Below are positions 25,191-64,000 of a stretch of 64,000 bases of DNA, piece after piece. Every line of letters begins with the position of its first letter. Position 1 is the stretch's first letter. A program made the translations under genes and the position numbers. The stretch is from NCBI GenBank assembly GCA_965368975.1, contig CBDUPA010000015.1, positions 108,778 through 172,777 of the forward strand, in the 5' to 3' direction. The notes beneath the pieces are model-generated. The model searched no databases. It had not been told where the DNA came from and saw only the letters and a list, made by a program, of their open reading frames with translations. The stretch is from an uncultured bacterium. GTDB lineage: Bacteria; Acidobacteriota; Thermoanaerobaculia; Multivoradales; JAHZIX01.

Positions 25191-25371
25191 GGGCGGCCGC
25201 ACGGAGCCGCCGGCAACCGGGGGCCGGAAACGGAACCGGATCTCCGTTGCAGGAGGAACTCCCCACCCCACCCAGGTATTGCCTCGACTGCCAAAGTGTT
25301 CTAGAACTACCTTCATACGCAATAGCCACCCCACCGCCCACCTCGACGAAGGCGGTCCGCGAGGAGACGAG

Positions 25372-26748
25372 ATGCTCGAAGACCTGACCCGCTACACCCG
25401 CGTGCTCGAAATCATCGGCGACATGATCCGGGTGCAGGCCAAGGACGTGCCGGTGAAGACGCTGGCGGTGGTGCAGAACGTAGACGGTGAGGTATCACTG
25501 GCACGCGTGATCGAACTCGACGGCGACATGGTGAGCCTGCAGGTCTTCGCGGGCGGCAAGGGGCTGTCGACGGAGGCGCGGGTGCGCTTCCTGGGCGAGC
25601 CGCTGCAGGTGACGTACTCACCCAACATCCTGGGACGCATCTTCCGCGGCTCGGGCGAGGCGATCGACGGCGGACCGGATCTCTCGGCAGACCCAAAGAT
25701 CGACGTCGCGGGACCGACCGTCAACCCGATGATGCGCGTGATGCCGGCGAAGATGATCGAGACCAAGGTACCGATGATCGACGTCTTCAACTGCCTGGTG
25801 GAGAGCCAGAAGATCCCGATCTTCTCCGTCGCCGGTGAGCCCTACAACGAGTTGCTGGCGCGCATTGGCTTCCAGGCGGATGCGGATGTCGTCGTCTTCG
25901 GTGGTCTGGGCCTGATCTTCGACGACTACCACTTCTTCCGTACCGCCTTCGAAGAGCACGGCGTGTTCCACCGCACGGTCATGTTCGTCAACCTGGCATC
26001 GGACCCAATCGTCGAGCGCTTGATGGTTCCGGACCTCGCGCTGGCGGTGGCCGAGAAGTACGCGGTGGAAGAGGGCAAGCGGGTGCTGGTGCTGCTCACC
26101 GACATGACCGCCTACGCCGATGCGATGAAAGAGATCGGTGTGTCACTCGAACACATCCCGGCAACACGCGGCTACATGGGCGACCTCTACACGCAGCTGG
26201 CGTCGCGCTACGAGAAAGCGTGTGACTTCAAGGGCGCCGGCTCGGTGACCATCCTGACCGTCACCACCATGCCGGGCAACGACGTCACCCACCCGGTGCC
26301 GGACAACACCGGCTACATCACCGAGGGGCAGTTCTACCTCCAGGATCGCATGATCAACCCCTTCGGCTCGCTGTCGCGCCTGAAGCAGCACGTGATCGGC
26401 TCCGTCACGCGCGAGGATCACTCGCAGGTGATGAACACCATGATCCGGCTCTATGCCGGCGGCGTCGAAGCCGAGAAGAAGCAGGCGATGGCCTTCGACC
26501 TCTCTGCCTTCGACGACAAGCTGCTGCGCTTCTCGGACCTGTTCCGCGAGCGCTTCATGGACATCGAGGTGTCGCTGCCGCTCAACGACGCGCTCGACCT
26601 GTGCTGGCAGACGCTGGCGGAGTGCTTCGAGCCACAGGAGTTGCTGATGAAGCAGCACCTGATCGACAAGTTCTTCCCCAACCGCGATGCATCGAACCGC
26701 GACGATGACGCCAGCGGTGAGGTCACGGCCGCAGAGGACGCCGCCTGA
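25372..26748 (+). CDS. atpB: V/A-type ATP synthase subunit B
   Basis: SQKIPIFS, LTDMTAYADA, RGYMGDLY, THPVPDNTGYITEGQ and SLSRLK; GAGGAG RBS before ATG 25372. Confidence 0.95.
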   Translation: MLEDLTRYTRVLEIIGDMIRVQAKDVPVKTLAVVQNVDGEVSLARVIELDGDMVSLQVFAGGKGLSTEARVRFLGEPLQVTYSPNILGRIFRGSGEAIDGGPDLSADPKIDVAGPTVNPMMRVMPAKMIETKVPMIDVFNCLVESQKIPIFSVAGEPYNELLARIGFQADADVVVFGGLGLIFDDYHFFRTAFEEHGVFHRTVMFVNLASDPIVERLMVPDLALAVAEKYAVEEGKRVLVLLTDMTAYADAMKEIGVSLEHIPATRGYMGDLYTQLASRYEKACDFKGAGSVTILTVTTMPGNDVTHPVPDNTGYITEGQFYLQDRMINPFGSLSRLKQHVIGSVTREDHSQVMNTMIRLYAGGVEAEKKQAMAFDLSAFDDKLLRFSDLFRERFMDIEVSLPLNDALDLCWQTLAECFEPQELLMKQHLIDKFFPNRDASNRDDDASGEVTAAEDAA

Positions 26749-27422
26749 TGGCCAAGCTGGCGCTCAACAAGAGTACGCTGCACAAGCGGCGCGAGCAGCT
26801 GAAGCTGTATCGCCGCGTGCTGCCGTCGCTCGACCTGAAGCGCCAGCAATTGACCGCCGAGTTGAACCGCATGAAGGCCGAAGAAGAAACCCTGCGCAAA
26901 GAGTTCGACGCCACCCTCTTCGACGCCGGCGAACGCCTGCCGATGCTGGCGGACACGACGATGGACCTGCAAGGACTGCTGAAGGTCGAGGCGGTGGAAT
27001 TGAGCGAGGAGAACCTGCTCGGCGTCAAGCTGCCACGGCTCGACCGGCTGCAGACGCGGGTACGGGATTACTCGCTGCTGGCCAAGCCGCATTGGGTCGA
27101 CGTGGTGGTCGACCGCATGCGCCAGGCAGCGGAGTTGCAGCTGCGGTTGGAAGTGGCGGCCGAGCGGGTGCGGCGCACGGACCACGCGGTGCGGCGACTG
27201 ACCCAGCGGGTCAACCTGTTCGACAAGGTGCTGATCCCCCAGGCCCAGGACGACATCCAGCGCATCCGCATCTTCCTCGGCGACCTCGAGCGCGCCGCGG
27301 TCGTGCGCTCCAAGCTGGCCAAGAGCAAGTACCACAAGATGACAGCCCAACGGCAGGTCCAGCGCCAAGGCCACGAGCCGGGACGCGGAGACGGCGCCGA
27401 AGCGGCGGGGGGTGCGGCATGA
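26748..27422 (+). CDS. atpD: V/A-type ATP synthase subunit D
   Basis: LALNKSTL...LPSLDLKRQQL and TQRVNLFDKVLIP. Confidence 0.93.
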   Translation: MAKLALNKSTLHKRREQLKLYRRVLPSLDLKRQQLTAELNRMKAEEETLRKEFDATLFDAGERLPMLADTTMDLQGLLKVEAVELSEENLLGVKLPRLDRLQTRVRDYSLLAKPHWVDVVVDRMRQAAELQLRLEVAAERVRRTDHAVRRLTQRVNLFDKVLIPQAQDDIQRIRIFLGDLERAAVVRSKLAKSKYHKMTAQRQVQRQGHEPGRGDGAEAAGGAA

Positions 27423-29206
27423 TCGTGCCCTTGGTGCGCGTCACCTTCTACGGCCTGCTGGGCGAGAAGGCGCAGGTGCTCGAAGAACTTCAGGCCCAGG
27501 GCTGCTTGCACCTGCTGCCGCTGCGCGCGGGTGCCGAGGGCGAAGAGGCCGAACTGGCGATCGCGCAGGAGGTGCGCGACTCGCTGCAGTTCCTGCTCGC
27601 CTCGCCACTCAAGCGCCAGCAACGGCACGACCCCGAGCAGTTCGATGCCGCTCGTGTCCAGCGCCACGCGTTGGAAACCCAGGCCAAAATGCGCGAGCTG
27701 GAGGACCGCCGCGACTTCCTGCGCCGGCGTATCCGCGACCTCGAACCCTGGGGCGATTTCACCTTCCCGCCGCGCGACCGACTGCGCCAACAGCGACTGT
27801 GGTTCTACATCGTGCCGCACTACCTGATGCCGCGTGTCGCCGAGACGGAGCTGGTGTGGCAGACCGTGCACCGCGACACGCGCCACTGCTATGTCGTGGT
27901 CCTGGCCGAGGATGTGCCGCAGGGAATGCCGGTCGAGCGCACGCGCACCGGCGACCGGCCGCTGTCCGAACTGCGTCGCCGGCTGGAGCGCGTCGAGAGC
28001 GAGCTCGAAGACCAGCAGGTCGAGCGCTGGCGTCTGACCTGCTGGCTCGACCAGCTCGCCGGCTCGATGCACCGGCTGGAGAACCGCGCCGCGCGCGACC
28101 TGGCCGCCACCCGGACGCACGACACGGACCCGCTCTTCGTGCTGCAAGCGTGGGCCCCCAAGGACCACCTCGACGATCTGCGCACCTACGCAGAAACCAA
28201 GGGCCTGGCGCTGGTGACCGAAGAACCGAACGACGAGGATGCCCCACCGACGCTGCTGCGCAACCCGACCTTGGTGCGCGGTGGCCAGGATCTGGTGTCC
28301 TTCTACTCGACGCCCAGCTACGATCTTTGGGACCCGTCGCCCGTCGTCTTCTTCTCGTTCGCCGTCTTCTTCGCCATGATTCTGTCCGACGCTGGCTACG
28401 CGCTGCTGCTCGGCCTGCCGCTGCTGTTCAAGTGGAAGGCGATGGGCACGACGCCGGTGCGCCGCGGTCTGCGCAACCTGTGGCTGACACTCACCGCCAC
28501 CTCGGCTGCCTGGGGCATCGCGGTAGGCAGCTACTTCGGCCTGGCACCGCCCGAAGGCGGCCCACTGGCCAGCGTCAACCTGCTCGATGTGCGCGACAGC
28601 ACAACCATGATGAAGCTCTCCGTCGCCGTTGGCCTGCTGCACGTCGCCTTCGCCAACGCGGTGGGTGTATGGCGGCTGCGTCGCTCGGCGGCAATGCTGG
28701 TGCCCCTGGGCTGGCTGGTGATCCTGCTCACCGCCGGCTTCTGGGGCCTCTCCCACGGTACCGTGCTGGCCGCGCAGGGAGCGCTCGTGGGCCCCTGGGG
28801 CCTGGCAGCCGGCGGTACGCTGGTCCTGTTGTTCAGCGGCTTGGGGGCCAAGCCCTTCGGGCGCCTGTTCCAGGGCCTGATCGGCGTCTACCGGGTGACC
28901 AACGCTTTCGGCGACGTGCTCAGCTACCTGCGCCTGTTCGCCCTCGGGTTGGCCAGTGCATCGCTGGCCACCGCCTTCAACGACCTGGCCCGTCAGGTCG
29001 CCGAGGACATGCCAGCCTTCGGCATGCTGCTGGCCCTGATCGTGCTGCTCTTCGGTCACGGTCTCAACTTCCTGCTCGCCGTGGTCAGCGGCTTCGTGCA
29101 TGGCCTGCGGCTCAACTTCATCGAATTCTTCAACTGGGGTGTGCCCGAAGAGGGCCGCCCGTTCCGCGCTTTCGCCAAGAAGGAGGCAGTCCAGTGGAAT
29201 CCATGA
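27419..29206 (+). CDS. atpI: V/A-type ATP synthase subunit I (a)
   Basis: ATG at 27419 (ATGA overlap); PPTLLRN, FFAMILSDAGY, DVLSYLRLFALGL and HGLRLNFIEFF. Confidence 0.93.
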   Translation: MIVPLVRVTFYGLLGEKAQVLEELQAQGCLHLLPLRAGAEGEEAELAIAQEVRDSLQFLLASPLKRQQRHDPEQFDAARVQRHALETQAKMRELEDRRDFLRRRIRDLEPWGDFTFPPRDRLRQQRLWFYIVPHYLMPRVAETELVWQTVHRDTRHCYVVVLAEDVPQGMPVERTRTGDRPLSELRRRLERVESELEDQQVERWRLTCWLDQLAGSMHRLENRAARDLAATRTHDTDPLFVLQAWAPKDHLDDLRTYAETKGLALVTEEPNDEDAPPTLLRNPTLVRGGQDLVSFYSTPSYDLWDPSPVVFFSFAVFFAMILSDAGYALLLGLPLLFKWKAMGTTPVRRGLRNLWLTLTATSAAWGIAVGSYFGLAPPEGGPLASVNLLDVRDSTTMMKLSVAVGLLHVAFANAVGVWRLRRSAAMLVPLGWLVILLTAGFWGLSHGTVLAAQGALVGPWGLAAGGTLVLLFSGLGAKPFGRLFQGLIGVYRVTNAFGDVLSYLRLFALGLASASLATAFNDLARQVAEDMPAFGMLLALIVLLFGHGLNFLLAVVSGFVHGLRLNFIEFFNWGVPEEGRPFRAFAKKEAVQWNP

Positions 29207-29652
29207 CCCTGGTCCTCGGATGGCTCGGTATCTTCGCACCGGTCGCCCTGGGGGCGGTGGGCAGCATCATCGGCTGCGCGCGCGCTGGCCAGGCGGCTTG
29301 CGGGGCGCTGCTCGAGACCGAAACCGGCCACGGCCGTTACATCGGCATCTCGGCCATGCCCTCGTCGCAGACCATCTACGGCATCGTCGTGATGCTCACC
29401 CTCAACCGTGCGGTCGACCTCGACAACGCACCCGGCCTGTTCGCCATCGGTGTACTCTCCGGTGTGGCACTGATGCTCAGCGGCATCCACCAGGGCAACT
29501 GCTGCGCCTCGGCGATCAACGTGTCGAAGAGCAAGACGTCGATCTTTGGCCTGTCGATCGCACCAGCGGCGGTGGTCGAAGGCTTCGCCGTCTTCGTCTT
29601 CGTCTTCGCCTTGGTGCTGTCAGGCGGCCTACCGGGCGCCGGAGGGTCCTGA
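29194..29652 (+). CDS. atpK: V/A-type ATP synthase subunit K (c), four-TM proteolipid
   Basis: AGGAGG RBS then GTG 29194; GSIIGCARAG, MPSSQTIYG, HQG and VVEGFAVF. Confidence 0.92.
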   Translation: MESMTLVLGWLGIFAPVALGAVGSIIGCARAGQAACGALLETETGHGRYIGISAMPSSQTIYGIVVMLTLNRAVDLDNAPGLFAIGVLSGVALMLSGIHQGNCCASAINVSKSKTSIFGLSIAPAAVVEGFAVFVFVFALVLSGGLPGAGGS

Positions 29653-29655
29653 GTC

Positions 29656-30348
29656 ATGCCCTCTCCAGCCACGCAGCACCCGGTGTCCTCGGGCGTCCAG
29701 GAGCTGATCGAGCGGCTGCGGCGCGAGGGCGTCGAAGCCGGTGAGTCCGAGGCACGCGACGCCGTCGCCCAGGCGCGCCGGCAGGCCGACGAGATCCTCA
29801 GCTCGGCACGCCGCGAGGCCGAAGAGCTGCATGCGCGCACACGTCGAGAACTCGCAGCCGAGCGCGACGCCGCGCACGAGGCTCTGCGCCTGGCCGCCCG
29901 CGACCTGCAGCTCGAACTCAAAGAGCGCCTGACCGCCCGCTTCGAGGCACAGGTCAAGCAGCTGGTGAGCGCCGATTTGTCGAGCCACGATGGCCTGCGA
30001 GCACTGATCCTCGCCGTCGCCGGCCACGTCGGTGTGGAGCTAGCGGACGCGGCCGACGCGGGCCAACAGATGCAGGTAGCCGTCAGCGGCGATCTGTCGA
30101 ACGAGCAACTCGACACGCTGACCCGCGAACTCGCCGCCGGCCTGCTGCGCGAGGGCGTCGAGCTGGTGCCAGCAGCCGAGGGCGGCCCAACCGGTAGCAC
30201 GGCCAGCGGTGCCCAAGACGGCGGTATCCGCGTCCGGCTGGCGGACCAGGACATCGAGGTCGACCTCAGCGCGAACGCTCTCGCCAGCTTGCTGCTGCGC
30301 CGCTTGACGCCGCGCTTCCGCGAACTGTTCGCCGCACTGACGGCCTGA
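29656..30348 (+). CDS. atpE: V/A-type ATP synthase subunit E
   Basis: GVQELIERLRREGV, Ala/Glu/Arg-rich coiled coil, GIRVRL...EVDLS and PRFRELF. Confidence 0.85.
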   Translation: MPSPATQHPVSSGVQELIERLRREGVEAGESEARDAVAQARRQADEILSSARREAEELHARTRRELAAERDAAHEALRLAARDLQLELKERLTARFEAQVKQLVSADLSSHDGLRALILAVAGHVGVELADAADAGQQMQVAVSGDLSNEQLDTLTRELAAGLLREGVELVPAAEGGPTGSTASGAQDGGIRVRLADQDIEVDLSANALASLLLRRLTPRFRELFAALTA

Positions 30349-30373
30349 GGCCCGAGCAGGAGAGAACTTCCCC

Positions 30374-31081
30374 GTGAGCAACCGTCACTACTACACGTTG
30401 ATGGCCAGCCTGCCGCCGCTACCGCGCTTCGACCGCGCCGACCGGCTGCCGATCAACCAGGAGCGTCTCAACGAGCGCATGTCGATGCTCGAAGACGACG
30501 ATGCCGACGTGGTGCGCGCCGCCGAGAACTACCTGCATTGGAACCGCCAGCCGGTCGATCGCACGTCGGCCGAGGTCGTCGAGTTCTACGGCCAGCTGAT
30601 CGCTCGCTCCAGCGATGAGACGCTCAACGCCATGCTCGAGTACCGCATGACCGAGCGTACGATCATCGCCGCTCTGCGCCGCCGGCTGCGCGGGCACCCA
30701 CCGCCGGCCGCCGGTGAGCCCTGGGGTGTTGGCCCGTGGGTCGGCCACATCGAGCGCAATTGGGACGCTCCCGACTTCCGTCTCAGCCCGGTCTTCCCGT
30801 GGTTGCCGGAAGCCAAGCGCCTGCTCGAAGACGGCGAAGCACGCGAGCTGCAACGCTTGCTGATGGGCCTGATCTGGGACCAGCTCGTGCGCCTGGCCGA
30901 GAACCGTCCCTTTCACTTCGACGCCCTGCTCTGCTACCTCTTCCGCTGGGACATCTTGCGCCGCTGGCTGAGCTACGAAGACACCGCCACGGCCCGTCAC
31001 CGCTTCCGTCAGCTACTCAGCCAGGTGACCGCCGACCATCACCTGGAGTTCGCGCCTCCGACGTCGATAGCCGCCTCCTGA
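30374..31081 (+). CDS. DUF2764-family protein (subunit C-like) of the V/A-ATPase operon
   Basis: YYTLMASLP N-terminus and FHFDALLCY...W C-terminus; lies between subunits E and A. Confidence 0.8.
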   Translation: MSNRHYYTLMASLPPLPRFDRADRLPINQERLNERMSMLEDDDADVVRAAENYLHWNRQPVDRTSAEVVEFYGQLIARSSDETLNAMLEYRMTERTIIAALRRRLRGHPPPAAGEPWGVGPWVGHIERNWDAPDFRLSPVFPWLPEAKRLLEDGEARELQRLLMGLIWDQLVRLAENRPFHFDALLCYLFRWDILRRWLSYEDTATARHRFRQLLSQVTADHHLEFAPPTSIAAS

Positions 31082-31100
31082 AATCCTGAGGACCGCCACC

Positions 31101-32918
31101 ATGCCCACGACCTCGCCCCCAACTCCTCACACCGGCACGAGCCACGACCTCTCTGTAGGTCACGTCGTCGCCGTGCGCGACAACCTGCTGACGGTGAACG
31201 TCACCTCCGGCCCGATGATGAAGAACGAGGTCGCCTACGTCTGCCTCGGCGACCTGCGGCTGAAGGCCGAAGTCCTGCGCATCCAGGGCACCAGCGCGGA
31301 CCTACAGGTGTTCGAAGAAACCGCAGGCGTGCAGGTGGGCGACCGCGTCGAACTGACCAGCGAGTTGCTCTCCGTCACGCTCGGCCCTGGCCTCTTGGGC
31401 CAGGTGTTCGACGGTCTGCAACAGCCGCTGAGCGAGCTCGCACGCCAGTACGGCTTCTTCCTGCCACGCGGCATCACGCTCGACCCGCTCGACCGCAGCA
31501 AGAAGTGGCCCGTCACCGCCGTCGCCGCTCCCGGTGACCGTGTTGCCCCCGGCGGTGTCCTCGCGACGGTCCCGGAAGGCCCGTTCGAGCACAAGATCCT
31601 GGTGCCGTTCAATGAACCGGAAGCCGTCGAAGTGACCTGGATCCGCTCCGGCAACCTGACGCTCGACGAACCCCTCGCCCGCCTGCGCGGCGCCGACGGC
31701 CGCGAGCGGGAGATCGGCCTGACGCAGCGTTGGCCGGTGCGCAAACCCATCCCCGCGGGCTTGCTGCAGCGTCGCCACGCCGAGCGCCTCTATCCCAACG
31801 AGCCCCTGATCACGACCATCCGCCTGGTCGACACCTTCTTCCCCATCGCCCGCGGCGGCACCGCCTGCATCCCCGGCCCCTTCGGCGCCGGCAAGACCGT
31901 CTTGCAGAGCCTCTTCTCGCGCTACTCCAGCGCCGACATCGTGATCGTCGTCGCCTGCGGTGAGCGGGCCGGTGAGGTGGTCGAGACGATCACCGAGTTC
32001 CCCGAGATGCAGGACCCGCGCACCGGCGGTTCGCTGATGGACCGCACCATCATCATCTGCAACACCTCGTCCATGCCCGTCGCCGCCCGCGAGTCGTCGA
32101 TCTACACCGGCATCACCCTGGGGGAGTACTACCGCCAGATGGGCTACAGCGTCCTGGTACTCGCCGACTCGACATCCAGGTGGGCCCAGGCGATGCGCGA
32201 GATCTCGGGCCGCATGGAAGAGATCCCGGGCGAGGAAGCCTACCCCGCCTACCTCGACTCCTCGATCCGCAACATCTACGAACGCGCCGGCGTCATCCAA
32301 TGCGCCGACGGCAGCGTCGGCAGCCTGACGCTCGTCGGCACGGTCTCCCCGGCGGGCGGCAACTTCGAAGAACCGGTCACGCAGGCTACCTTGTCGACCG
32401 TCAAGACCTTTCTCGGCCTGTCGTCCGACCGCGCCTACAAGCGATACTATCCCGCCATCGACCCCTTGCTCTCCTGGTCGCGCTACCTCGACCAGCTCGC
32501 CCACTGGTACAAGGACAACCTGGACGACACCTGGGTCGCGGACGTCAAGGAACTCTCCGAGCTCCTACGCCGAGGCGACTCGATCCACCAGATGATGCAG
32601 GTGACCGGCGAAGAAGGCATCACGCTCGACGACTATGTCGTATGGCAGAAGGCGACGCTCTTGGACCTGGTCTACCTGCAGCAAGACGCCTTCGACGACA
32701 TCGACGTCTCGAACACGCTCGACCGTCAGAAAGACAGCTTCCACCTACTGCGTGACCTGATCCGGCGGAGCTACAACTTCGCTGACAAAGACCAGGCACG
32801 CAACTACTTCACGCGCCTGACTGGCCTGTACAAGAACCTCAACTACAGCGCCGACGGTGGCCCAGAGCACCAGCGCTACAAGCAACAGATCACGGACTTG
32901 GCAGCGCAGTATTCGTAG
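31101..32918 (+). CDS. atpA: V/A-type ATP synthase subunit A (catalytic)
   Basis: PGPFGAGKTV, ACGERAGE, NTSSMPVAARE, ADSTSRWAQA and SPAGGNFEEPVTQ. Confidence 0.96.
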   Translation: MPTTSPPTPHTGTSHDLSVGHVVAVRDNLLTVNVTSGPMMKNEVAYVCLGDLRLKAEVLRIQGTSADLQVFEETAGVQVGDRVELTSELLSVTLGPGLLGQVFDGLQQPLSELARQYGFFLPRGITLDPLDRSKKWPVTAVAAPGDRVAPGGVLATVPEGPFEHKILVPFNEPEAVEVTWIRSGNLTLDEPLARLRGADGREREIGLTQRWPVRKPIPAGLLQRRHAERLYPNEPLITTIRLVDTFFPIARGGTACIPGPFGAGKTVLQSLFSRYSSADIVIVVACGERAGEVVETITEFPEMQDPRTGGSLMDRTIIICNTSSMPVAARESSIYTGITLGEYYRQMGYSVLVLADSTSRWAQAMREISGRMEEIPGEEAYPAYLDSSIRNIYERAGVIQCADGSVGSLTLVGTVSPAGGNFEEPVTQATLSTVKTFLGLSSDRAYKRYYPAIDPLLSWSRYLDQLAHWYKDNLDDTWVADVKELSELLRRGDSIHQMMQVTGEEGITLDDYVVWQKATLLDLVYLQQDAFDDIDVSNTLDRQKDSFHLLRDLIRRSYNFADKDQARNYFTRLTGLYKNLNYSADGGPEHQRYKQQITDLAAQYS

Positions 32919-39603: not shown

Positions 39604-39925
39604 GACGAGCCTCCTTCAAACTGTACCTAGTGGGTGTTGAGGAGGATTGTAGCGCAACTGCAGCTGAGCGCCTCAAAGGAACCGGACTCTCTCAACAAGG
39701 AAGACAGGTGGTGGAGAACGGATCGCCGTAAGACAGAACTCGATCGGTACAGCTGTTAGGAGCTCACCGGTCACCCCACAGGCAGCCGGCGCAGGTCTTT
39801 AGCCAGCTGACGGACCGCCGTAGTAACACGGTAGCCTAGTAGTCGGCAGTTGGTCCTTGATGCAATTGATCGCTGCGAGATCTTTGAGTCCCAGACTCTT
39901 GGCTGGCCCCAGCAACGATGATGCC

Positions 39926-40792
39926 TTACCCTCGGAACTGGTCGAAGAATGATCGCTCGACCTCGAATACCCGGACCGGCGATAGCCCAAGTTCAAGCTG
40001 TTCGAGCATAGTGATCAACTTCTCACTGTCTACAAGTTCGATCGGCGGTGCCCCCTCCCGCACTGCTTCACGCTTTGCTTCTGACGTGAACGAGCCGGTT
40101 GTCAAGATAATCCCCTTGTCGGCTCGCCCTGTCATAGCTCCACGAAAGTCACGAACCTGGGAAGGGCTGACTGATCCCGAGTAACGCTTGCACTGAAAGA
40201 GAACTCGAAAGCTCACCAAGGGATTGACCTGCAGAATGCCAATGCCATCGATTCCACCGTCTCCAGATCGACCCGTGACGGTTACCTCTTCGAATCCCGA
40301 TTCGCGAAGGAGTCGTTGACAGAATCTCTCGAAGCCCCCAGGATGCATTTCTCTCAAAACTTCGAGTACTTGTTGGCGATGGCCTAGAGCCTCAGAATCA
40401 CCATTTTCACCAGAATCATCGACATCCTTGACACTGGACTCCGAAGCAGAGCGTGAACGCGGAAACTCTGATTGAACATCTCGAAAGATTCCCAGAGCTT
40501 GTTTTCTGGAGAGCGGATGAGCAGCTCGCCCCGCATCGGCCAACGTCCAGACACCACGGCGAGAGGAATCGATCAAACCTGCCTTTGCCAGGTAGAAGCG
40601 AGCCCAGGCAACCTGGTTATCGAACCGGCTGGTGCCACTGCTCATGATCTCCGCTTGCTCCTCCTCAGAGATTCCCAGGCTAGCTACAATCTGCTCGCGG
40701 ACCTCCGCAGGGCGAGCCGACCCCCCCAGGTCTACCAACGCTGAAAGTACTGGCCCGAAGTATCGAACAAATGCGGGACCTGTCGATGCCAA
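39926..40792 (-). CDS. mrr: Mrr-family (type IV) restriction endonuclease
   Basis: N-terminal RFDNQVAWARFYLAKAGLI...RGVW; catalytic FERFC, SGDGGIDG, QCKRY and VRDFRGA; GGAGG RBS before TTG 40792; visibly more AT-rich than its neighbours. Confidence 0.92.
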   Translation of the reverse strand: MASTGPAFVRYFGPVLSALVDLGGSARPAEVREQIVASLGISEEEQAEIMSSGTSRFDNQVAWARFYLAKAGLIDSSRRGVWTLADAGRAAHPLSRKQALGIFRDVQSEFPRSRSASESSVKDVDDSGENGDSEALGHRQQVLEVLREMHPGGFERFCQRLLRESGFEEVTVTGRSGDGGIDGIGILQVNPLVSFRVLFQCKRYSGSVSPSQVRDFRGAMTGRADKGIILTTGSFTSEAKREAVREGAPPIELVDSEKLITMLEQLELGLSPVRVFEVERSFFDQFRG

Positions 40793-40868
40793 TTTCCCTA
40801 CCTCCACTTTACAGTTATGCGGGCGCCGAGCTGAGGCGAGTTCGCCTCCCAAAATCCACTTCGGCTAT

Positions 40869-41234
40869 TCACTCTCCGTCGCGGTGCACGGTGTCCGGCG
40901 AGAAGGCCGGCAGGCACACCGCGACGTACTCGGCACCACCCTCTTCCGGGCTGCTGTAGCGCACCCACTCACCCGGCTTGGCAACCACCGCCTGGCCGGC
41001 ACGCACGTCGAGGCTACCGCCCTCGTACTCGACGCGCAGCATGCCAGCCAGCACGACGGTGATCTCTTCGAACTCCGGACGCTGACCGGGCTCGACCCAG
41101 CCCTGCGGCGAGGTCATGCGAGCCACACTGACCGTCTCGTGCCCACTGTTGACACGACCGGCGAACTCTTCGATCTTCTTCGGCTTGTTGCCGGCGGCGG
41201 CGATGACAGTCGGGGCTTCGATCAGCTGCGGCAT
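40869..41234 (-). CDS. Cupin-domain protein
   Basis: GNKPKKIEEFAGRVN, GWVEPGQRPEFEE, GEWVRYS and AFSPDTVHRD; AGGAG RBS. Confidence 0.85.
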   Translation of the reverse strand: MPQLIEAPTVIAAAGNKPKKIEEFAGRVNSGHETVSVARMTSPQGWVEPGQRPEFEEITVVLAGMLRVEYEGGSLDVRAGQAVVAKPGEWVRYSSPEEGGAEYVAVCLPAFSPDTVHRDGE

Positions 41235-41348
41235 GGGGTGGTCTCCTGGATGGTCGTAGGTTGCCAGGGCTCAGGATACCAAGGACGGTGAGACTCAGGA
41301 CGACAGGACTCAAGGACAGCGATACCCAGAACAGCCAAGAAAGCAGAT

Positions 41349-41378
41349 AGCGCCGGCAGCCCGCAGACCACCGGCGCT
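41349..41378 (-). terminator. Possible hairpin terminator after the GPI-PLD-like gene
   Basis: 8-bp stem AGCGCCGG / CCGGCGCT just past the stop codon; the U-tract is weak. Confidence 0.35.
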
Positions 41379-41386
41379 GGCTAGGC

Positions 41387-43861
41387 TCAGTCGAGCTCAG
41401 GGGATACCTGGAAGCTCGGGACCTCGCCGCCGAGGGTGGCGGTCTTGGACGAACGCGGGGCCGCCACCAGTAGGCGAATCGCCGTGCCATCCCGCGCGAC
41501 GGTGGCCGTGCTGCCTAGCCGCGCCCGCTTCTCACCGGAGAACTGCCGCCAATTCGCCGTGGCCGCGCCGACGGAGCCGGTGGGAAAGGACGCTCCACCG
41601 AACCAGGCATAGACGGCACCGGCATCGATACCCGCCTCGGTCCAGCGCTGCGGCTCGGTGATCAGGAGGTCGTCGCGGCCGTCACCGTTCACGTCGGTCA
41701 GACCGAGGCGCCAGCCGAAGCGGGCGAGATCCTGATCACCGCTGATGTGGGTGACGGCGGCGATGCGGTCGAGGCGTTGGTCGCCTCGCAGGTCGCCGGT
41801 CTCGAGGAGCCAGACCGCTCCTCGCTGCGGTTCGCTGGGTTCGAAGGCCGACGGGGAGGGCGCGGCGACGGCCAGCACCGGACCGGTACCGGGATTTCCG
41901 AAGGCCAGTGCCGACCCCAGCCCACCGTAGCGGCTCTGGCCGCGCAGTGTGAACCCCAGTCGCGGTTGCCTGGGATCGCTGAGGTCGTAGCCGTAGACGG
42001 CTCCGGCGGCCTGGCGTTGACCCGGCAGCCACTTGCTGCCGGGAGCACCGACCACCAGCCGTCGCGGCTGCCCTGGGGCGTCGATCAAGGCGGTGGTGGC
42101 ACCGAACCAATCGGTCGGGTGCTCGCCGCTGAGCGTCCAGACCGGGGCCAGTTGTGCGCCGCCTTCGACCGCTGAGGACGCGAGGTAGACGGACACCTGC
42201 CCGGCCTGCCGGCCACCACGCGGGTGGTCCGCCTGCGGCGCCCCGACCACCAGGTCACGGTAGCCGTCACCGTCGACATCGAGCCCGTTGAGGTGCCAGC
42301 CGAAGTTGGCGCGATCTCGCTCGGGCGCCAAGATCAGCCCTGGATCCGGGGCCAGCCCCCTGGCGGTGCCGAAGTAGACGTACACCTTGCCACGGTATTG
42401 CAGACGACTGGCACCGGTGGTGGGTGCCCCGACGGCCAAGTCATCGCGGCCGTCGGCGTTCAGATCGACCACCGCCAGGGCCCAGCCAAAGCGAGCGTGG
42501 GGCTCGTGCCCGACCAGGTCGATCGGCCCCTCGATTGGTCCCTCGATCAGGGCGTCGACCGAACCGTCCGGGAAGACCGAGCGTACCTGGACGCCACCAA
42601 CCTGGGCTTGCTGCGGCAGCGAGTAGCCCGGTACGCCGATCGCTACCTGCGTTCGGCCACCGAAGCGGCCGGTGGCCAGAGCCGTGCCCGTGTATCGGTA
42701 GGCGGCGTCGGTACCGGCCGGCACTCTCACGCTCAGGGACTCGGCGGCAGCGGTGCCCGCCGGTACGAAGCGCACGCCGCCCGCGACGGCAACCTGTTCC
42801 AGCTGGCCGGCAGTCGCGAGGACCTGTCGCCCCACCGTGCCGTCGAAGGTGAGGTCGTGGGTCGCAACAGCAGTGGTACTCGGAGCAGTACCACGCGCAC
42901 CCGAGTCGTAGTCTTCGCCTGCTACTCTTTCGGGGCAGTACAGGGCCCCACGAGATGCTTGTTCTGCCGTGGGTTCCTGCTCGAACAAGGCGGTAAGTCG
43001 CGGCCAGAACTCCGCGATCAGGACGGCGCTGTTGTCGGTGCCGCCGGCAAAGTAGTCCTCGAAGCGCTCGACGAGGAACGGAGACCTCTTGACGAACTCA
43101 GGGTAAACGTCCCGGTAGAAAATCTCCTGCAGCGTCGAGCTGGTTTCCACCCTGCGGAACGCGATCACGGCAGCGCTCATCAGCTTGGTCGCCTGCACCA
43201 ATTGATCCCGAGTCACCCCGTAATTCCTGCCTTCTCGGCGGCCCAAGGCCTCGTAGACCTGCTCGATGTCCTGCATCGGAAAGTAGAACGCATCGGTGGC
43301 CCAGCGTGGATCGTTCTGGTAGATGTCCACGACCATGCCACCCGCGTCACCAATGTCGTGGGCCCTCCTCGGATCCGAGGGTGGATACTGCGGCTGATTG
43401 TCGTAGCTGCGCAGGCTGTAGGTCTCGCTGAAGTCCTGGTTGGACATCGCCTGCAGGAACCCGGGCAAACCGCCGCCACAATCGAGGTTGTGCCAGTAGA
43501 GGTCGCTGAGGCCGTGGGTCATCATCCCCAGAACGAACACCGCCAGCTTCTCTGTCGCTTCATCCCAAGGCTTCGGCTTTGATCGAAGCAGTCGGCTGGC
43601 TTCCTCCAGGAAGGGCGTCCAGTGGGCCGCTCCGCTGGCGTCTGGATTGACGCTCTCGGCAAAGCCCCAATCCGGGAAGATCGCCCCGGCCTGGAAGGCA
43701 TCCGGGTGCTTCAGCAGCAGCTCGCGCTGCGGGCTGTCGGCGCTCAGGGAGTAGAAGTGCAGCGCCCGGCGGGCGATCTCCACATGGTGCCCGATGCCAT
43801 TGGCCAGCGCGCACACCGGGGCGAGCAGGAGCACCAGGAGCAAGGTCGTCTTCCGGCTCAT
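41387..43861 (-). CDS. Secreted GPI-specific phospholipase D (GPLD1)-like protein: Zn-dependent phospholipase domain + FG-GAP/integrin-alpha beta-propeller
   Basis: ATG 43861 (ATGA overlap with the upstream gene); signal peptide; HVEIARRAL, FQAGAIFPD, HWTPFL, PWDEATEKL, THGLSDLYWH and AHDIGD; repeats FGWAL..VDLNADGRDDLAVGAP, DVDGDGYRDLVVGAP and DVNGDGRDDLL. Confidence 0.88.
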   Translation of the reverse strand: MSRKTTLLLVLLLAPVCALANGIGHHVEIARRALHFYSLSADSPQRELLLKHPDAFQAGAIFPDWGFAESVNPDASGAAHWTPFLEEASRLLRSKPKPWDEATEKLAVFVLGMMTHGLSDLYWHNLDCGGGLPGFLQAMSNQDFSETYSLRSYDNQPQYPPSDPRRAHDIGDAGGMVVDIYQNDPRWATDAFYFPMQDIEQVYEALGRREGRNYGVTRDQLVQATKLMSAAVIAFRRVETSSTLQEIFYRDVYPEFVKRSPFLVERFEDYFAGGTDNSAVLIAEFWPRLTALFEQEPTAEQASRGALYCPERVAGEDYDSGARGTAPSTTAVATHDLTFDGTVGRQVLATAGQLEQVAVAGGVRFVPAGTAAAESLSVRVPAGTDAAYRYTGTALATGRFGGRTQVAIGVPGYSLPQQAQVGGVQVRSVFPDGSVDALIEGPIEGPIDLVGHEPHARFGWALAVVDLNADGRDDLAVGAPTTGASRLQYRGKVYVYFGTARGLAPDPGLILAPERDRANFGWHLNGLDVDGDGYRDLVVGAPQADHPRGGRQAGQVSVYLASSAVEGGAQLAPVWTLSGEHPTDWFGATTALIDAPGQPRRLVVGAPGSKWLPGQRQAAGAVYGYDLSDPRQPRLGFTLRGQSRYGGLGSALAFGNPGTGPVLAVAAPSPSAFEPSEPQRGAVWLLETGDLRGDQRLDRIAAVTHISGDQDLARFGWRLGLTDVNGDGRDDLLITEPQRWTEAGIDAGAVYAWFGGASFPTGSVGAATANWRQFSGEKRARLGSTATVARDGTAIRLLVAAPRSSKTATLGGEVPSFQVSPELD

Positions 43862-45267
43862 GCCGCCACCGCGGCCTTGTCGGCGGTCACGTCGTCCGAG
43901 GCGGCGCCAGCGCGGCGCACGGACACCGCGACTCCGGCGACCTCGCACAGCTTCTTGCCATCCGCCGTGAAGGTATCGATCACGGTTTGGTCCAGACCGA
44001 TGCGCAGAGGAACGCCGCCGATCGTCGGCGTGATCTCGGGCAACTGAAACACCGGAATCTTCAGCAACGCGATCATGTTGACGATGAGGTTGGCGATCGG
44101 ACTCAAGAGCTCATCGACGATGCGTGACAGGAGCCGGTTGATGAATTCGGGCACCTCGTCGAACCGGAGGTCGATGTTCAAGCGCTGGGTCAGGCTGAAT
44201 TGATGGAAGCGCACCCAGCCCTCAGAGAGCAGGACCGAAGCCACGACCTGCGGCCTGGCCAGAATCGACAGACCCACGCGGACCCAATCCCACCACTTCC
44301 AGAAAGCCCTGATGCGGAAGCCTGCCCGACCTGAACCATAGGCCTCCAGGGATGCCAGGGTCTTGTTGCCGTCCTGCAGCGCGAAGCGAGGACTGCGCAG
44401 ACCGACGCTGAAGCTGGCGCGCCCTTCGATCCCCAACCCTGGCTCCCACTCTTCCTTGCCGTGGGCCTGCCCCGCCTGGCGCGTGTGCCGGAGAATGCTG
44501 GTCGCCGCGCCGTTGGCCACGGCGTCGTCGAAGTGCACGAAAACGCCCTTGCGGTTGCGCACGGTAATCCCCTCGGGCGCCTGCGTCGTCGACCCCTTGA
44601 GGGCCGCGTAGCCGGCAACCACGCCTTGGCTGACCCGCACGGCGGGCGCCGCGAACTCGACGCCCTCGAAGCGGATCGCTGGCAATTCGAAGCCCTTGCC
44701 GAGGTACTCATTGACCTTGGGCAGCAGTAAGGGAACAAGGTAGTCGTTGACCAGCCGTTCCAGCTCCGGGTCCGGCTTGCCGGTCAGCTGGACTCGGGCG
44801 GTCAGCGCCTGCGGCACCAGCCTCCAATCAGGCGTGAACTGGGCGACGGCACCGATCGAAACGGAGCCCTCGAACCGGCGCTCGGGCCGGCCGTTGATCG
44901 AAACACCCAGGATGACCTTGTTGGCCAAAACGTCGAAGCTGGCCCTGGAATCCACCATCCCGTCGATCAGCGAAGTCACGTCCGTCCCTTGCAACAACTC
45001 GGCGACGGCTGCCGCGCCAGCTTGCTCCGCCTGCGGCTGCGTCCAGCTGGCCAGCAATCCGGCCTTGTACTCGGCCACCAGCGCAGAGTTCTTGAACCGG
45101 AAGACGAAGGCCTGAGCCAGGTCGTAGGTCGCCTTGATCTTCAAAGGCTCGGTCACTTCGAGTTCGCCTTTGAGCGGAGCGTTGGGATAGATCTGAGCGT
45201 GGAGTTGCCTGGAAAGGTTGTTGAAACTCTCTTCTGTCGCGCCTGCTACCGCGTTGTACGTGGCCAT
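43858..45267 (-). CDS. Hypothetical beta-rich protein, possibly BPI/LBP (TULIP) fold
   Basis: GAGGAG RBS then ATG 45267; about 469 aa; two halves each with a strand-helix opening, long alternating strands and a closing amphipathic helix; no signal peptide. The CDS is well supported, the fold is a guess. Confidence 0.6.
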   Translation of the reverse strand: MATYNAVAGATEESFNNLSRQLHAQIYPNAPLKGELEVTEPLKIKATYDLAQAFVFRFKNSALVAEYKAGLLASWTQPQAEQAGAAAVAELLQGTDVTSLIDGMVDSRASFDVLANKVILGVSINGRPERRFEGSVSIGAVAQFTPDWRLVPQALTARVQLTGKPDPELERLVNDYLVPLLLPKVNEYLGKGFELPAIRFEGVEFAAPAVRVSQGVVAGYAALKGSTTQAPEGITVRNRKGVFVHFDDAVANGAATSILRHTRQAGQAHGKEEWEPGLGIEGRASFSVGLRSPRFALQDGNKTLASLEAYGSGRAGFRIRAFWKWWDWVRVGLSILARPQVVASVLLSEGWVRFHQFSLTQRLNIDLRFDEVPEFINRLLSRIVDELLSPIANLIVNMIALLKIPVFQLPEITPTIGGVPLRIGLDQTVIDTFTADGKKLCEVAGVAVSVRRAGAASDDVTADKAAVAA

Positions 45268-45427
45268 GCTCTTCTCCTCGTACCTGCACTCCTCGTCGAG
45301 CACGGGGAGACACAGGGAGCCTCGGGTTGTCTCTTGCAGTCATCCTCCGACGCTCGCAGGAAGCTGAAGAGTCTCGACCCAAGGCTGTCGCCAGGCGCGG
45401 CAACCTCTCACCGTCTTTGCAGGCCGC

Positions 45428-46414
45428 TCACTTCTCGTCGACCCAGGTCTGCCCTGCCTTCTCGACTTCACTGTCCCAGCCGCGCCGTGTGTCGTGGGTT
45501 TCCTCGTCGCCGCCGTTGACGCGGATCTTCCAGGTGGTGTCGCTCTTCATGTGGCCTTTGCCCGGCAGACAGGTGACTTCGATGTCGACCACATCACCCG
45601 CAGCCACCTCCACGGGTGCGTGTAGGGGCAGGCGCGGACGGCCCCAGTGGGTGTCAGGGGCTTCGGGGCCGGTGGACAGTTCGACGCCACCGCCCAGATC
45701 ACTGGTGAACCAGAGCACGAAGGCGTTGAGACGACCCGCACGCTGGACCTCGAAGCTGGCACGGCCGTGGTAGGGCTGGCGCGACTCCGTGGCCGAGAAG
45801 GTATGGCAGTCGTGGCGCCACAGCTGGCTGGCGGGGGCCAGGAGTTCGGACGCCGGACTGGGCCGGCCCGGACGCTGGACGTTCTCGCACAGGACGTCCG
45901 CCATGCGGCCGAGCTCGACGCCGTAGGGCTGACCGCGCCAGAACTCCATGTCTTCGTGGAACTGGGCATTGTCGACCGGCGCGATGTAGACCGTGCAGTC
46001 GGCCGGCATCATGGCGCCGCCGGGCTTCAGGTACTTGTCGCGCGCGTCGAGCATGGCGGGCAGCATGTTCTCGTCGACGCCGTAGGTCCCCATCCACTCG
46101 GAGACGATCAGATCGACCTTGCCCGGCAACTCGACCTCGGACGCATCCGCTTCGAGCACCTCGATGCGGTCACTCAGGCCGTTGTCGGCAATGAAGTGAC
46201 GGGCCAGCTGAGCCATGTGACTGATCTCGACGGCGTAAACTTTCTCGGCCCCAGCGCGGGCCGCGAAGATGCTCAGCAAGCCACTGCCGGCACCGACGTC
46301 GAGCACGGTCTGCCCCGGCTGGACGACCGCGTTCAGGGCCTGCTGGAACGCTTCGCAGCGGGCGCGGTCGCGCAGCATGATCAGGTGCATGACAATGGAG
46401 GCGTAGTGGTACAT
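45428..46414 (-). CDS. PRMT-type (eukaryote-like arginine) SAM-dependent methyltransferase
   Basis: MLRDRAR, VLDVGAGSGLLS, VYAVE, double-E loop SEWMGTYGVDE, YLKPGG and THW loop (PDTHW); GAGGAG RBS. Confidence 0.9.
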   Translation of the reverse strand: MYHYASIVMHLIMLRDRARCEAFQQALNAVVQPGQTVLDVGAGSGLLSIFAARAGAEKVYAVEISHMAQLARHFIADNGLSDRIEVLEADASEVELPGKVDLIVSEWMGTYGVDENMLPAMLDARDKYLKPGGAMMPADCTVYIAPVDNAQFHEDMEFWRGQPYGVELGRMADVLCENVQRPGRPSPASELLAPASQLWRHDCHTFSATESRQPYHGRASFEVQRAGRLNAFVLWFTSDLGGGVELSTGPEAPDTHWGRPRLPLHAPVEVAAGDVVDIEVTCLPGKGHMKSDTTWKIRVNGGDEETHDTRRGWDSEVEKAGQTWVDEK

Positions 46415-46444
46415 GAGATCTCCTCGGTAAAGACTCGGCAGAGT

Positions 46445-64000
<17,556 letters not shown>

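Follow-up and report, generated by a model that had tools for sequence, protein, structure and literature searches.

GPLD1, the glycosylphosphatidylinositol (GPI)-specific phospholipase D (PLD), has so far been studied as an animal plasma enzyme. Bacteria, too, are known to secrete enzymes that detach GPI-anchored proteins from the cells of eukaryotes, namely, the phosphatidylinositol (PI)-specific phospholipases C (PLCs) of Bacillus, Listeria, and Staphylococcus, which have an unrelated fold and a metal-independent mechanism; they serve here as a functional precedent only, and homology to them is neither implied nor was it found. Propellers of the FG-GAP/integrin type are already known in bacteria (PMC3192720), and a term search of that article gave 0 instances of "phospholipase" or "GPI". 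The activity of GPI-PLD is abolished by the mutation of His29, His125, His133, or His158, according to the title of Raikwar 2005 and an excerpt of PMC13241479. Here, we describe a gene on the minus strand of a 64,000-nucleotide stretch of DNA (contig CBDUPA010000015.1, positions 108,778 to 172,777, assembly GCA_965368975.1) from an uncultured bacterium of the phylum Acidobacteriota; this whole stretch is referred to as the window. Judged by its sequence, this bacterial gene encodes a genuine member of the GPLD1 family. Points of note are its bacterial host, the newly seen near-universality of the family in two small uncultured phyla, and its promise for structural and mechanistic work. Literature searches retrieved no report on a bacterial GPLD1 homologue in a searched set outside of which most subscription journals lie.

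Full-length homology to GPLD1

The open reading frame (ORF) starts with an ATG at position 43861 and ends with a TGA at 41387-41389 on the minus strand, and its product has 824 amino acids. A previous reading of the window, made from the letters alone (the sequence-only reading), had located the ORF at exactly these positions, and all of the motifs that it quoted are present in the translation. The signal peptide that it reported is likewise recognizable in the sequence; following the AxA rule, cleavage is predicted after A18-L19-A20, which would leave N21 as the mature N terminus. A GTG at 43948 was considered as an alternative start codon and rejected, since the additional Arg-rich stretch would overlap the upstream gene and homologues start at the ATG-equivalent signal peptide.

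A BLASTP comparison with mammalian GPLD1 (P0048) resulted in a single collinear alignment that spans residues 9-819 of the window protein and 10-838 of GPLD1, with 31% identity (E 3e-98). A word-indexed search of 5.8 billion proteins retrieved 197 matches at E <= 0.001 among 8000 scored candidates, and nearly all of the best 120 of these 197 matches carry the GPLD1 domain set. Closest among the 120 listed were P0003-P0013, from metagenomes, which align over the full length at 42-32% identity. The list also contained named vertebrate GPLD1s (28-32% identity, 93-99% query coverage, E down to 1e-89), followed by sequences of Capsaspora and then a dictyostelid. The metagenome homologues that are closer than the named GPLD1s show 39-44% identity. 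Some of the bacterial-looking homologues had been named automatically "glycosylphosphatidylinositol phospholipase D" by JGI and were thus already in public data. The three nearest large clusters in the ESM Atlas were all eukaryotic GPLD1 (score 0.96), and when only the catalytic domain (residues 1-350) was scored against the representatives of 1.84 billion clusters, 481 relatives were obtained at E <= 0.001, including 224 at E <= 1e-10.

In Pfam, residues 26-134 match positions 2-98 of the 167-position profile of Zn_dep_PLPC (PF00882; 43.9 bits, cut-off 26.8), the family profile of the Zn-dependent PLC and P1 nuclease superfamily. FG-GAP (PF01839) scored 107.6 bits, also above its cut-off, and no NCBIfam family matched the protein. 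The protein thus combines a catalytic domain and a propeller in one chain, predicted to be secreted, of the ~800-850 amino acids typical of the family, and it shows collinear, full-length homology to the vertebrate GPLD1s that have been studied experimentally. Beyond the small clade to which it belongs, its matches are proteins of GPLD1 architecture, including named vertebrate GPLD1, and not the generic Zn-PLC/FG-GAP proteins that the sequence-only reading had named as the outcome that would speak against its view. The full-length homology and the shared two-domain layout that it had proposed are in agreement with the Pfam matches, the protein searches, the BLASTP alignment, and the structural model described below.

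Predicted structure and catalytic residues

The AlphaFold2 model, derived from an alignment of 70 sequences, has a mean predicted local distance difference test (pLDDT) score of 88.2 and a predicted template modeling (pTM) score of 0.91. Residues of about 23-303 form a helical domain, with pLDDT values mostly above 90 except in the loop 146-162; a partly disordered linker follows, and residues 385-823 form a complete seven-bladed propeller. Low confidence is limited to the signal peptide, the loop 146-162, and the linker segment 320-340. The "several FG-GAP repeats" of the sequence-only reading are hence present, but they understated what the model shows to be a complete propeller.

Several comparisons identified integrin alpha as the closest propeller. 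Using VIA-align, integrin alpha propellers were the best matches (Z 33-35, root mean square deviation of about 3 A, 349-377 residues aligned), whereas non-integrin propellers reached Z values of 29.6 or less. Foldseek also returned integrin alpha as the propeller match (E of about 1e-14), and in a Protein Data Bank (PDB) sequence search, integrin alpha-5, alpha-V, and alpha-IIb matched the propeller with E values down to 3.6e-19. No GPLD1 chain was returned by either of the two PDB sequence searches, one of them with the profile of the N-terminal domain (N-domain). The window protein contains 3 Dx[DN]xDG motifs, compared with 3-4 in three vertebrate GPLD1s; this motif class is known from FG-GAP propellers and GPI-PLD (excerpt of PMC3123361).

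The sequence-only reading had suggested that equivalents of the four essential histidines of GPLD1 are present, and the alignment of 70 sequences shows that this is the case: His29, His125, His133, and His158 of P0048 and of the Gallus protein P0031 align with H26, H116, H124, and H168 of the window protein. Residues H26, D64, H80, H116, D120, and H168 are invariant in 70 of 70 homologues, whereas H124 and D172 are conserved in >=90%. These eight residues (H26, D64, H80, H116, D120, H124, H168, and D172) are candidate metal ligands. Their spacing, H..D..H..H-x3-D-x3-H..H-x3-D, seems to resemble that of the trinuclear zinc site in Bacillus cereus PLC and in P1 nuclease, and the position of the predicted mature N terminus, five residues ahead of the first His, presumably corresponds to that in the same two enzymes, whose own N-terminal residue is a zinc ligand. 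Two cysteines, C128 and C309, are invariant across the six-member clade that comprises the window protein (see below) and may form a disulfide bond.

Residence in a bacterial genome

The GPLD1-like gene is a real and intact bacterial gene. It is present in a single copy inside a contig of 172,777 bases, in a genome of 7.13 Mb that is 99.3% complete, and it contains no introns. The neighboring genes are ordinary genes of a diderm bacterium, such as those encoding a resistance-nodulation-division (RND) efflux system with its outer membrane factor, pstCA, a V-type ATPase, and a GGDEF protein. The gene has a GC content of 0.677 and a GC content at third codon positions (GC3) of 0.81, and its synonymous-codon score (-0.975) lies within the range of the neighbors (-0.76 to -1.14), so that the similarity in GC content claimed in the sequence-only reading is real. 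Its view that the gene is no contamination also stands, given the overlap of the start codon with the stop codon of the preceding gene, the hairpin behind the gene, the codon usage, and a second contig. The hairpin is the sole terminator-like site in the region 39500-46800; since shuffled sequences gave a mean of 3.6 such sites, the terminator consensus scan alone is weak evidence. There are 0 tRNA genes, which were looked for as a sign of mobile elements, in the 64-kb window.

The second contig (9544 bases) comes from a sludge metagenome of an independent study. Over positions 41350-45400, it is about 92% identical to the window, with 329 other letters and 25 gaps, indicating that this relative retains both the GPLD1-like gene and its upstream neighbor side by side. 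The gaps within the gene correspond to an in-frame deletion of 24 bases in the low-confidence EGPIEGPI loop, and the resemblance ends at 41350, just beyond the hairpin. Among the 39 in-gene differences listed, a subset of about 324, 23 affect the third position of a codon, and of the 34 changed codons, 19 are synonymous; most of the listed differences are in the propeller, and the third-position bias therefore says little on the catalytic domain. Another contig of 461 bases, from a sediment run, is identical over the gene junction and was counted as non-independent, since it possibly represents the source sample. We refer to the host as a soil- or sediment-type bacterium; the small word shares observed in sludge and sediment metagenomes were not used as habitat evidence. 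No RNA run was among the listed holders of the sequence. As a lead on the host taxon, Acidobacteriota MAGs were the best named relatives of its PstA (65-69% identity), ahead of Chromatiales and Gammaproteobacteria (63-69%).

Distribution among prokaryotes

A search with the whole protein in 40 relatives of the host (same family or order) gave matches in 18 of them, all of which lie within residues 332-760 and thus represent other FG-GAP proteins. The catalytic N-domain was found in none of the 40 relatives, nor did its profile detect a match at E <= 1e-8 in 400 other genomes of the host phylum, which cover 228 genera. With the host included, 401 genomes of the phylum were thus sampled, and the host is the 1 holder among them.

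A pattern scan of 185,579 prokaryote species, with one genome per species, revealed at least 20 loci, a lower bound because a single peptide pattern was used. All of these loci are in metagenome-assembled genomes (MAGs), whose titles read "Deltaproteobacteria bacterium" (4), Thermodesulfobacteriota (3), Planctomycetota (2), or unclassified (11). Of the genomes of one small GTDB phylum, 6 of 6 carry the catalytic domain, as do 14 of 17 of a second one (genomes G430-G439 and G640-G653, to which loci L014, L018, L022, and L023 led) and, in a large phylum, 3 of the 201 genomes sampled. The GPLD1-type gene behaves like a core gene in the two small uncultured phyla; among prokaryotes in general, it is rare and patchy, and its occurrence outside these two phyla is sporadic. 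Given the bacterial homologues in public data and their near-universality in two small phyla, the gene is less isolated than the sequence-only reading had assumed, and its acquisition from eukaryotes is one of several readings. A metagenome scan for the clade of the window protein identified at least 15 loci, with no member of this clade among the matches listed and a best identity of 35%.

Loci L025 and L026, both in Planctomycetota MAGs, encode stand-alone proteins of 331 amino acids that consist of the catalytic domain without a propeller and are 27-28% identical to the window protein. The catalytic domain thus also exists in unfused form in bacteria.

Phylogeny and origin

Trees were calculated using FastTree (163 rows) and IQ-TREE with the posterior mean site frequency (PMSF) model (67 rows). 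The window protein clusters with P0003, P0004, P0005, P0123, and P0126 in a six-member clade (support 100; the window clade), whereas all genome-derived bacterial loci form a separate, main bacterial clade (support 99). The named holozoans form their own clade (support 100), and a number of unnamed rows were labeled eukaryote-like. This label was deduced from three kinds of evidence, namely, a composition rich in Asn, Ser, and Lys; matching metagenome contigs with a GC content of 0.32-0.50, together with a frame break in L042; and the absence of pattern-bearing members from the prokaryote genome scan. The window protein lies inside the radiation of proteins with GPLD1 architecture.

The backbone that connects the window, main bacterial, holozoan, and eukaryote-like clades showed no supported order in either the FastTree or the PMSF tree. 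The sequence-only reading had put forward nesting inside eukaryotes as a sign of horizontal transfer; nesting inside a named eukaryotic clade was not seen. When the window and main bacterial clades were forced into one clan, the likelihood was 7.96 log-likelihood units better than that of the free quick search, and the topology was not rejected by the data (p-AU 0.67 in the approximately unbiased [AU] test, under LG+G4, a model described as more prone to error). The data are therefore compatible with a single split that separates the bacterial from the eukaryote-like sequences. A tree of the N-domain with the two Planctomycetota proteins of 331 amino acids as outgroup gave no resolved root, with row L018 being miscut (branch length 10). 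In our view, the window gene came to its host through horizontal transfer, since the N-domain was found in 0 of the 40 relatives and 0 of the 400 phylum genomes and the upstream gene, P0263, in 0 of the 40 relatives; the donor would most simply have been another bacterium.

In many proteins of the main bacterial clade, a long run of Asp residues precedes a GCGC at the very C terminus (L019-L022, L024, and L028). Such ends were seen, outside the window, in P0008, P0011, P0012, P0054, P0055, P0057, P0058, P0139, P0164, P0175, and P0187. At the DNA level, the pattern DD-x-GCGC-stop occurs in 13, 16, and 37 copies in three genomes of one small uncultured phylum and in 0 copies in a fourth genome of that phylum and in the genome of the window; the reversed pattern, used as a control, gave 0 everywhere. 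The poly-Asp/GCGC tail has the appearance of a C-terminal tag for sorting or anchoring that is used throughout the lineage, and NCBIfam contained no family for the GCGC tail in the two proteins scanned, P0054 and P0011.

Feature map and gene neighborhood

The coordinates of the gene, its parts, and the neighboring features are compiled in Table 1.

Table 1. Positions of the GPLD1-like gene, the segments of its product, and adjacent features in the window
Feature	Position	Strand	Basis or remarks
GPLD1-family gene	41387..43861	-	824 codons + TGA; ORF/translation, PF00882 + PF01839, full-length GPLD1 match
Sec-type signal peptide MSRKTTLLLVLLLAPVCALA, residues 1-20	43802..43861	-	Read from sequence
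Catalytic N-terminal domain, residues 21-300	42962..43801	-	PF00882; Zn-dependent phospholipase C/GPLD1 type
Linker, residues 301-384	42710..42961	-	Contains C309; partly low confidence, pLDDT <50 at 320-340
Seven-bladed FG-GAP (integrin alpha type) beta-propeller, residues 385-824	41390..42709	-	Pfam, PDB sequence matches, fold searches
Dx[DN]xDG calcium-loop motif DLNADG, residues 466-471	42449..42466	-	Pattern search
Dx[DN]xDG motif DVDGDG, residues 528-533	42263..42280	-	Pattern search
Dx[DN]xDG motif DVNGDG, residues 723-728	41678..41695	-	Pattern search
Terminator-like hairpin	41349..41378	-	9 bases past stop; 13-pair stem, 9 G-C, weak T tail
Coupled upstream gene P0263	43858..45267	-	469 amino acids; TGA overlaps GPLD1-like ATG (ATGA, 43858-43861)
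Type I protein arginine methyltransferase (PRMT) homologue, full length	45428..46414	-	PRMT6 over residues 4-305, E 3.4e-47; PRMT_C oligomerization subdomain
Hybrid nonribosomal peptide synthetase-polyketide synthase (NRPS-PKS) open frame	46445..64000	-	>5825 amino acids; runs off window
Mrr-type restriction endonuclease	39926..40852	-	Mrr_N + Mrr_cat; GC 0.553, GC3 0.54 vs 0.72-0.90 in neighbors
ORF of 709 amino acids	33671..35800	+	Fuses Ser/Thr protein kinase and polysaccharide deacetylase domains
V/A-type ATPase gene set	25279..32918	+	A and B subunits, c-ring repeats

The product of the upstream gene P0263 lacks a signal peptide, and it matches no family significantly. Among 5.8 billion proteins, a single homologue was found (P0264, 64% identity), and none was detected in the 40 relatives. 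The only Pfam match for both P0263 and P0264 was PF02886 (LBP_BPI_CETP_C), below the cut-off and over 31 residues. The nearest named clusters in the ESM Atlas were P47/OrfX-like TULIP proteins (0.85) and LBP_BPI_CETP_C (0.83), so that both weak signals point in one direction. We consider P0263 as a putative BPI/TULIP-like lipid-binding partner to be a lead and not a finding. When P0263 and P0264 were compared with loci L001-L028, the window's own locus, L001, was the only match, with E values of 0.5 or more for all others.

The PRMT-like gene directly follows the NRPS-PKS gene. In the C-terminal 3999 residues of the latter that were scanned, adenylation, condensation, ketosynthase (KS), acyltransferase (AT), ketoreductase (KR), carrier, and thioesterase domains were identified. 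PRMT-like sequences were found in 10 of the 40 relatives, some of them in open frames of 3693-5392 amino acids, as well as in a megasynthase-sized frame in the host. As PRMT-like sequences reside in megasynthase frames, the gene probably belongs to the synthase cluster and not to a "eukaryote-like island," and its product is probably a tailoring enzyme of megasynthase clusters.

A tblastn search with five window neighbors against loci L009-L043 gave no match. The all-against-all clustering of 118 neighbor ORFs from 19 loci (L009-L024 and L029-L031) revealed no family present in more than 4 loci, and the family with 4 loci was an ORF that overlaps the GPLD1-like gene on the opposite strand. With no neighbor conserved across these 19 loci, the gene context gives no functional clue.

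On the downstream side, the contig of the 92% relative departs from the window at 41350, on the side of the Mrr gene, and the Mrr gene is probably a recent insertion beside the GPLD1-like gene. Further away in the window are a kinase-deacetylase fusion and the genes of a V/A-type ATPase. Among the latter, an ORF is listed at 27412-29652 that has a GC3 of 0.53 and was probably partly read in the wrong frame.

Proposed function and alternative explanations

The reading that we favor, and that we hold to be rather probable, is that the protein is a true member of the GPLD1 family, secreted, that cuts a foreign GPI-type or inositol-linked glycolipid, and that the gene was gained horizontally together with the coupled gene. 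The protein would be exported by the Sec pathway, and cleavage after Ala20 would free an N-terminal residue located five residues before the first metal-binding His, an arrangement of the mature N terminus that is common to related zinc phosphodiesterases. The helical N-domain retains the full His/Asp set of a putative multi-zinc phosphodiesterase site, including the four essential histidines of GPLD1, and an integrin-type, seven-bladed, presumably calcium-binding propeller comes next, as in GPLD1. The enzyme would most likely act outside the cell on a glycolipid, whose phosphodiester at the lipid end it would hydrolyze. Homology places GPI-type or inositol-phosphate-linked glycolipids first among the possible substrates and bulk phospholipids second; our best guess would be a GPI-type or other inositol-phosphate-linked anchor from fungi, protists, or bacteria with inositol lipids. 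The gene probably entered the lineage horizontally along with its translationally coupled partner, which may be a BPI/TULIP-like lipid binder. Inositol-1-phosphate synthase (Inos-1-P_synth, PF01658) was not detected in the 99.3%-complete host genome, whereas 6 of 14 control genomes were positive; it was also absent from 5 of 5 other holders, genomes whose completeness is not known. A host without this enzyme favors a substrate that is made by others or one that contains no inositol.

A number of points weigh against this reading. The missing inositol-1-phosphate synthase is also compatible with inositol uptake or an inositol-free substrate. The assignment of the zinc ligands depends on what we take to be the sites of Bacillus cereus PLC and P1 nuclease. 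In the window clade, a low-confidence insertion of 16 residues is located directly ahead of H168 and a second insertion at about residues 233-243, and these insertions could change the specificity. The sequence profile of the N-domain matches no PDB chain, even at E 10, and the fold searches with the full model (Foldseek and VIA-align) gave lists filled by propellers; the N-domain model is helical and confident. As to the partner, the scores of PF02886, 15.7 and 18.4 bits (E 0.011 and 0.0016), lie under its cut-off of 23, and the AlphaFold2 model of P0263, with a pLDDT of 39, is unusable. The 19 loci have no conserved neighbor, and the gene ends an NRPS-PKS gene string, to the product of which its role is possibly tied. 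Activity data on any bacterial member of the GPLD1 family were not found in the searched literature.

One alternative is less specific catalysis. A secreted zinc phosphodiesterase acting on phosphatidylcholine, phosphatidylethanolamine, sphingomyelin-like lipids, or an envelope polymer, with a propeller that serves for surface binding only, appears unlikely to us, although several points speak for it: the catalytic domain belongs to PF00882, the family of Zn-dependent PLCs; the insertions of the window clade are close to the active-site residue H168; specificity can drift at an identity to GPLD1 of only about 31%; and the near-universality in two small phyla suggests a housekeeping role in the envelope there and not an attack on eukaryotes. 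However, the window protein has the entire two-domain layout and the active-site residues of GPLD1 and not those of single-domain or PLAT-fused bacterial PLCs, and a profile that matches no solved Zn-PLC indicates a large distance from the classical enzymes. A role tied to the adjacent synthase cluster, in which the protein and P0263 would mature, release, or detoxify a lipid-linked product in the periplasm or outside the cell, is in our view decidedly improbable. The NRPS-PKS, methyltransferase, P0263, and GPLD1-like genes do form a tight series on the same strand, with the only terminator-like site after the last of them, and PRMT-like domains occur within megasynthase-sized frames in relatives and in the host; yet a gap of about 160 bases separates the methyltransferase gene from P0263, the 19 other loci lack a recurrent NRPS or PKS neighbor, and the presence of PRMT-like sequences in 10 of 40 relatives, as opposed to P0263 and the GPLD1-like gene in none, suggests separate histories.

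Even less credible is a secreted binding protein or adhesin that uses the integrin-like propeller and has no catalytic activity. Such a role would be in line with the catalysis-independent carrier function reported for mammalian GPLD1 (excerpt of PMC13241479) and with the frequent use of FG-GAP propellers as binding modules in relatives (FG-GAP-only matches in 18 of 40), but the protein retains every candidate metal ligand, as well as the four essential histidines. The excess of third-position differences (23 of 39 listed) also speaks for a maintained protein, mostly for its propeller and thus little for the catalytic domain. Eukaryotic contamination or an assembly chimera, for which one could cite that the closest named relatives among the matches listed are animal proteins, is practically negligible in view of the 172,777-base contig with RND efflux, pstCA, and V-type ATPase genes around the gene, the lack of introns, a GC3 and codon usage as in the host, a start codon overlapping the stop of the preceding gene, the same two-gene order at about 92% identity on a contig from an independent study, and metagenome homologues that are closer, at 39-44% identity.

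Returning to a GPLD1-type enzyme that acts on foreign glycolipids, one may extend it to a scheme in which a TULIP-like and GPLD1-type pair strips the coats of GPI-anchored proteins from protist grazers or fungi and in which the family arose in bacteria and was passed once to an early eukaryote. We regard this combination as quite doubtful. If true, animal GPLD1 would descend from a bacterial enzyme, and the TULIP-like partner would extract or present GPI-type glycolipids.

Significance and comparison with known systems

The bacterial homologue is compact, has no introns, and retains all catalytic residues; it offers a practical way of obtaining a first experimental structure and of studying the mechanism, and it might serve as an easily made reagent with which to free GPI-anchored proteins. 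Since the family is widespread in eukaryote-like sequences, near-universal in two small bacterial phyla, and sporadic in other bacteria, the origin of GPLD1 becomes a question of inter-domain transfer. A putative secreted GPI-type lipase in a bacterium that is apparently unable to make inositol would point to interactions with eukaryotic microbes or with bacteria that contain inositol lipids.

The window protein shares with vertebrate GPLD1 the order of a signal peptide, a Zn_dep_PLPC-type domain, a linker, and a seven-bladed FG-GAP propeller with Dx[DN]xDG loops, a similar length (824 versus about 840 amino acids), and the four essential histidines as well as the further invariant His and Asp residues. 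It differs in its bacterial host, in which inositol-1-phosphate synthase was not detected; in a predicted mature N terminus that reads Asn-Gly, whereas that of the vertebrate proteins is Cys-Gly; in the motif FPDWG in place of the FPD[AC]F of vertebrates; in the insertions of the window clade at about 146-162 and 233-243 and the Cys pair C128/C309; and in the translational coupling of its gene to the upstream gene P0263. The proteins of the main bacterial clade, which come from MAGs that are labeled "Deltaproteobacteria"/Myxococcota or Thermodesulfobacteriota or are unclassified, have the same architecture and invariant residues and are 32-36% identical over the full length, and they are separate from the window clade in the tree (support 99 versus 100). 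Most of them carry a C-terminal tail of the sorting type, either poly-Asp plus GCGC, a hydrophobic helix plus an Arg run, or CFI-box-CTERM, whereas the window protein has none of these.

The classical bacterial Zn-PLCs, such as Bacillus cereus PC-PLC and the N-domain of Clostridium perfringens alpha-toxin, and the P1/S1 nucleases belong to the same Pfam family, PF00882, but have no propeller, and no solved member was matched by the N-domain profile at E 10. These enzymes also differ in the bond that is cleaved: PLC cuts on the glycerol side of the phosphate and P1/S1 nucleases cut nucleic acids, whereas GPLD1 cuts on the inositol side, as a PLD. With integrin alpha and bacterial FG-GAP proteins, the window protein has the propeller in common, which in its case is fused to a phospholipase domain.

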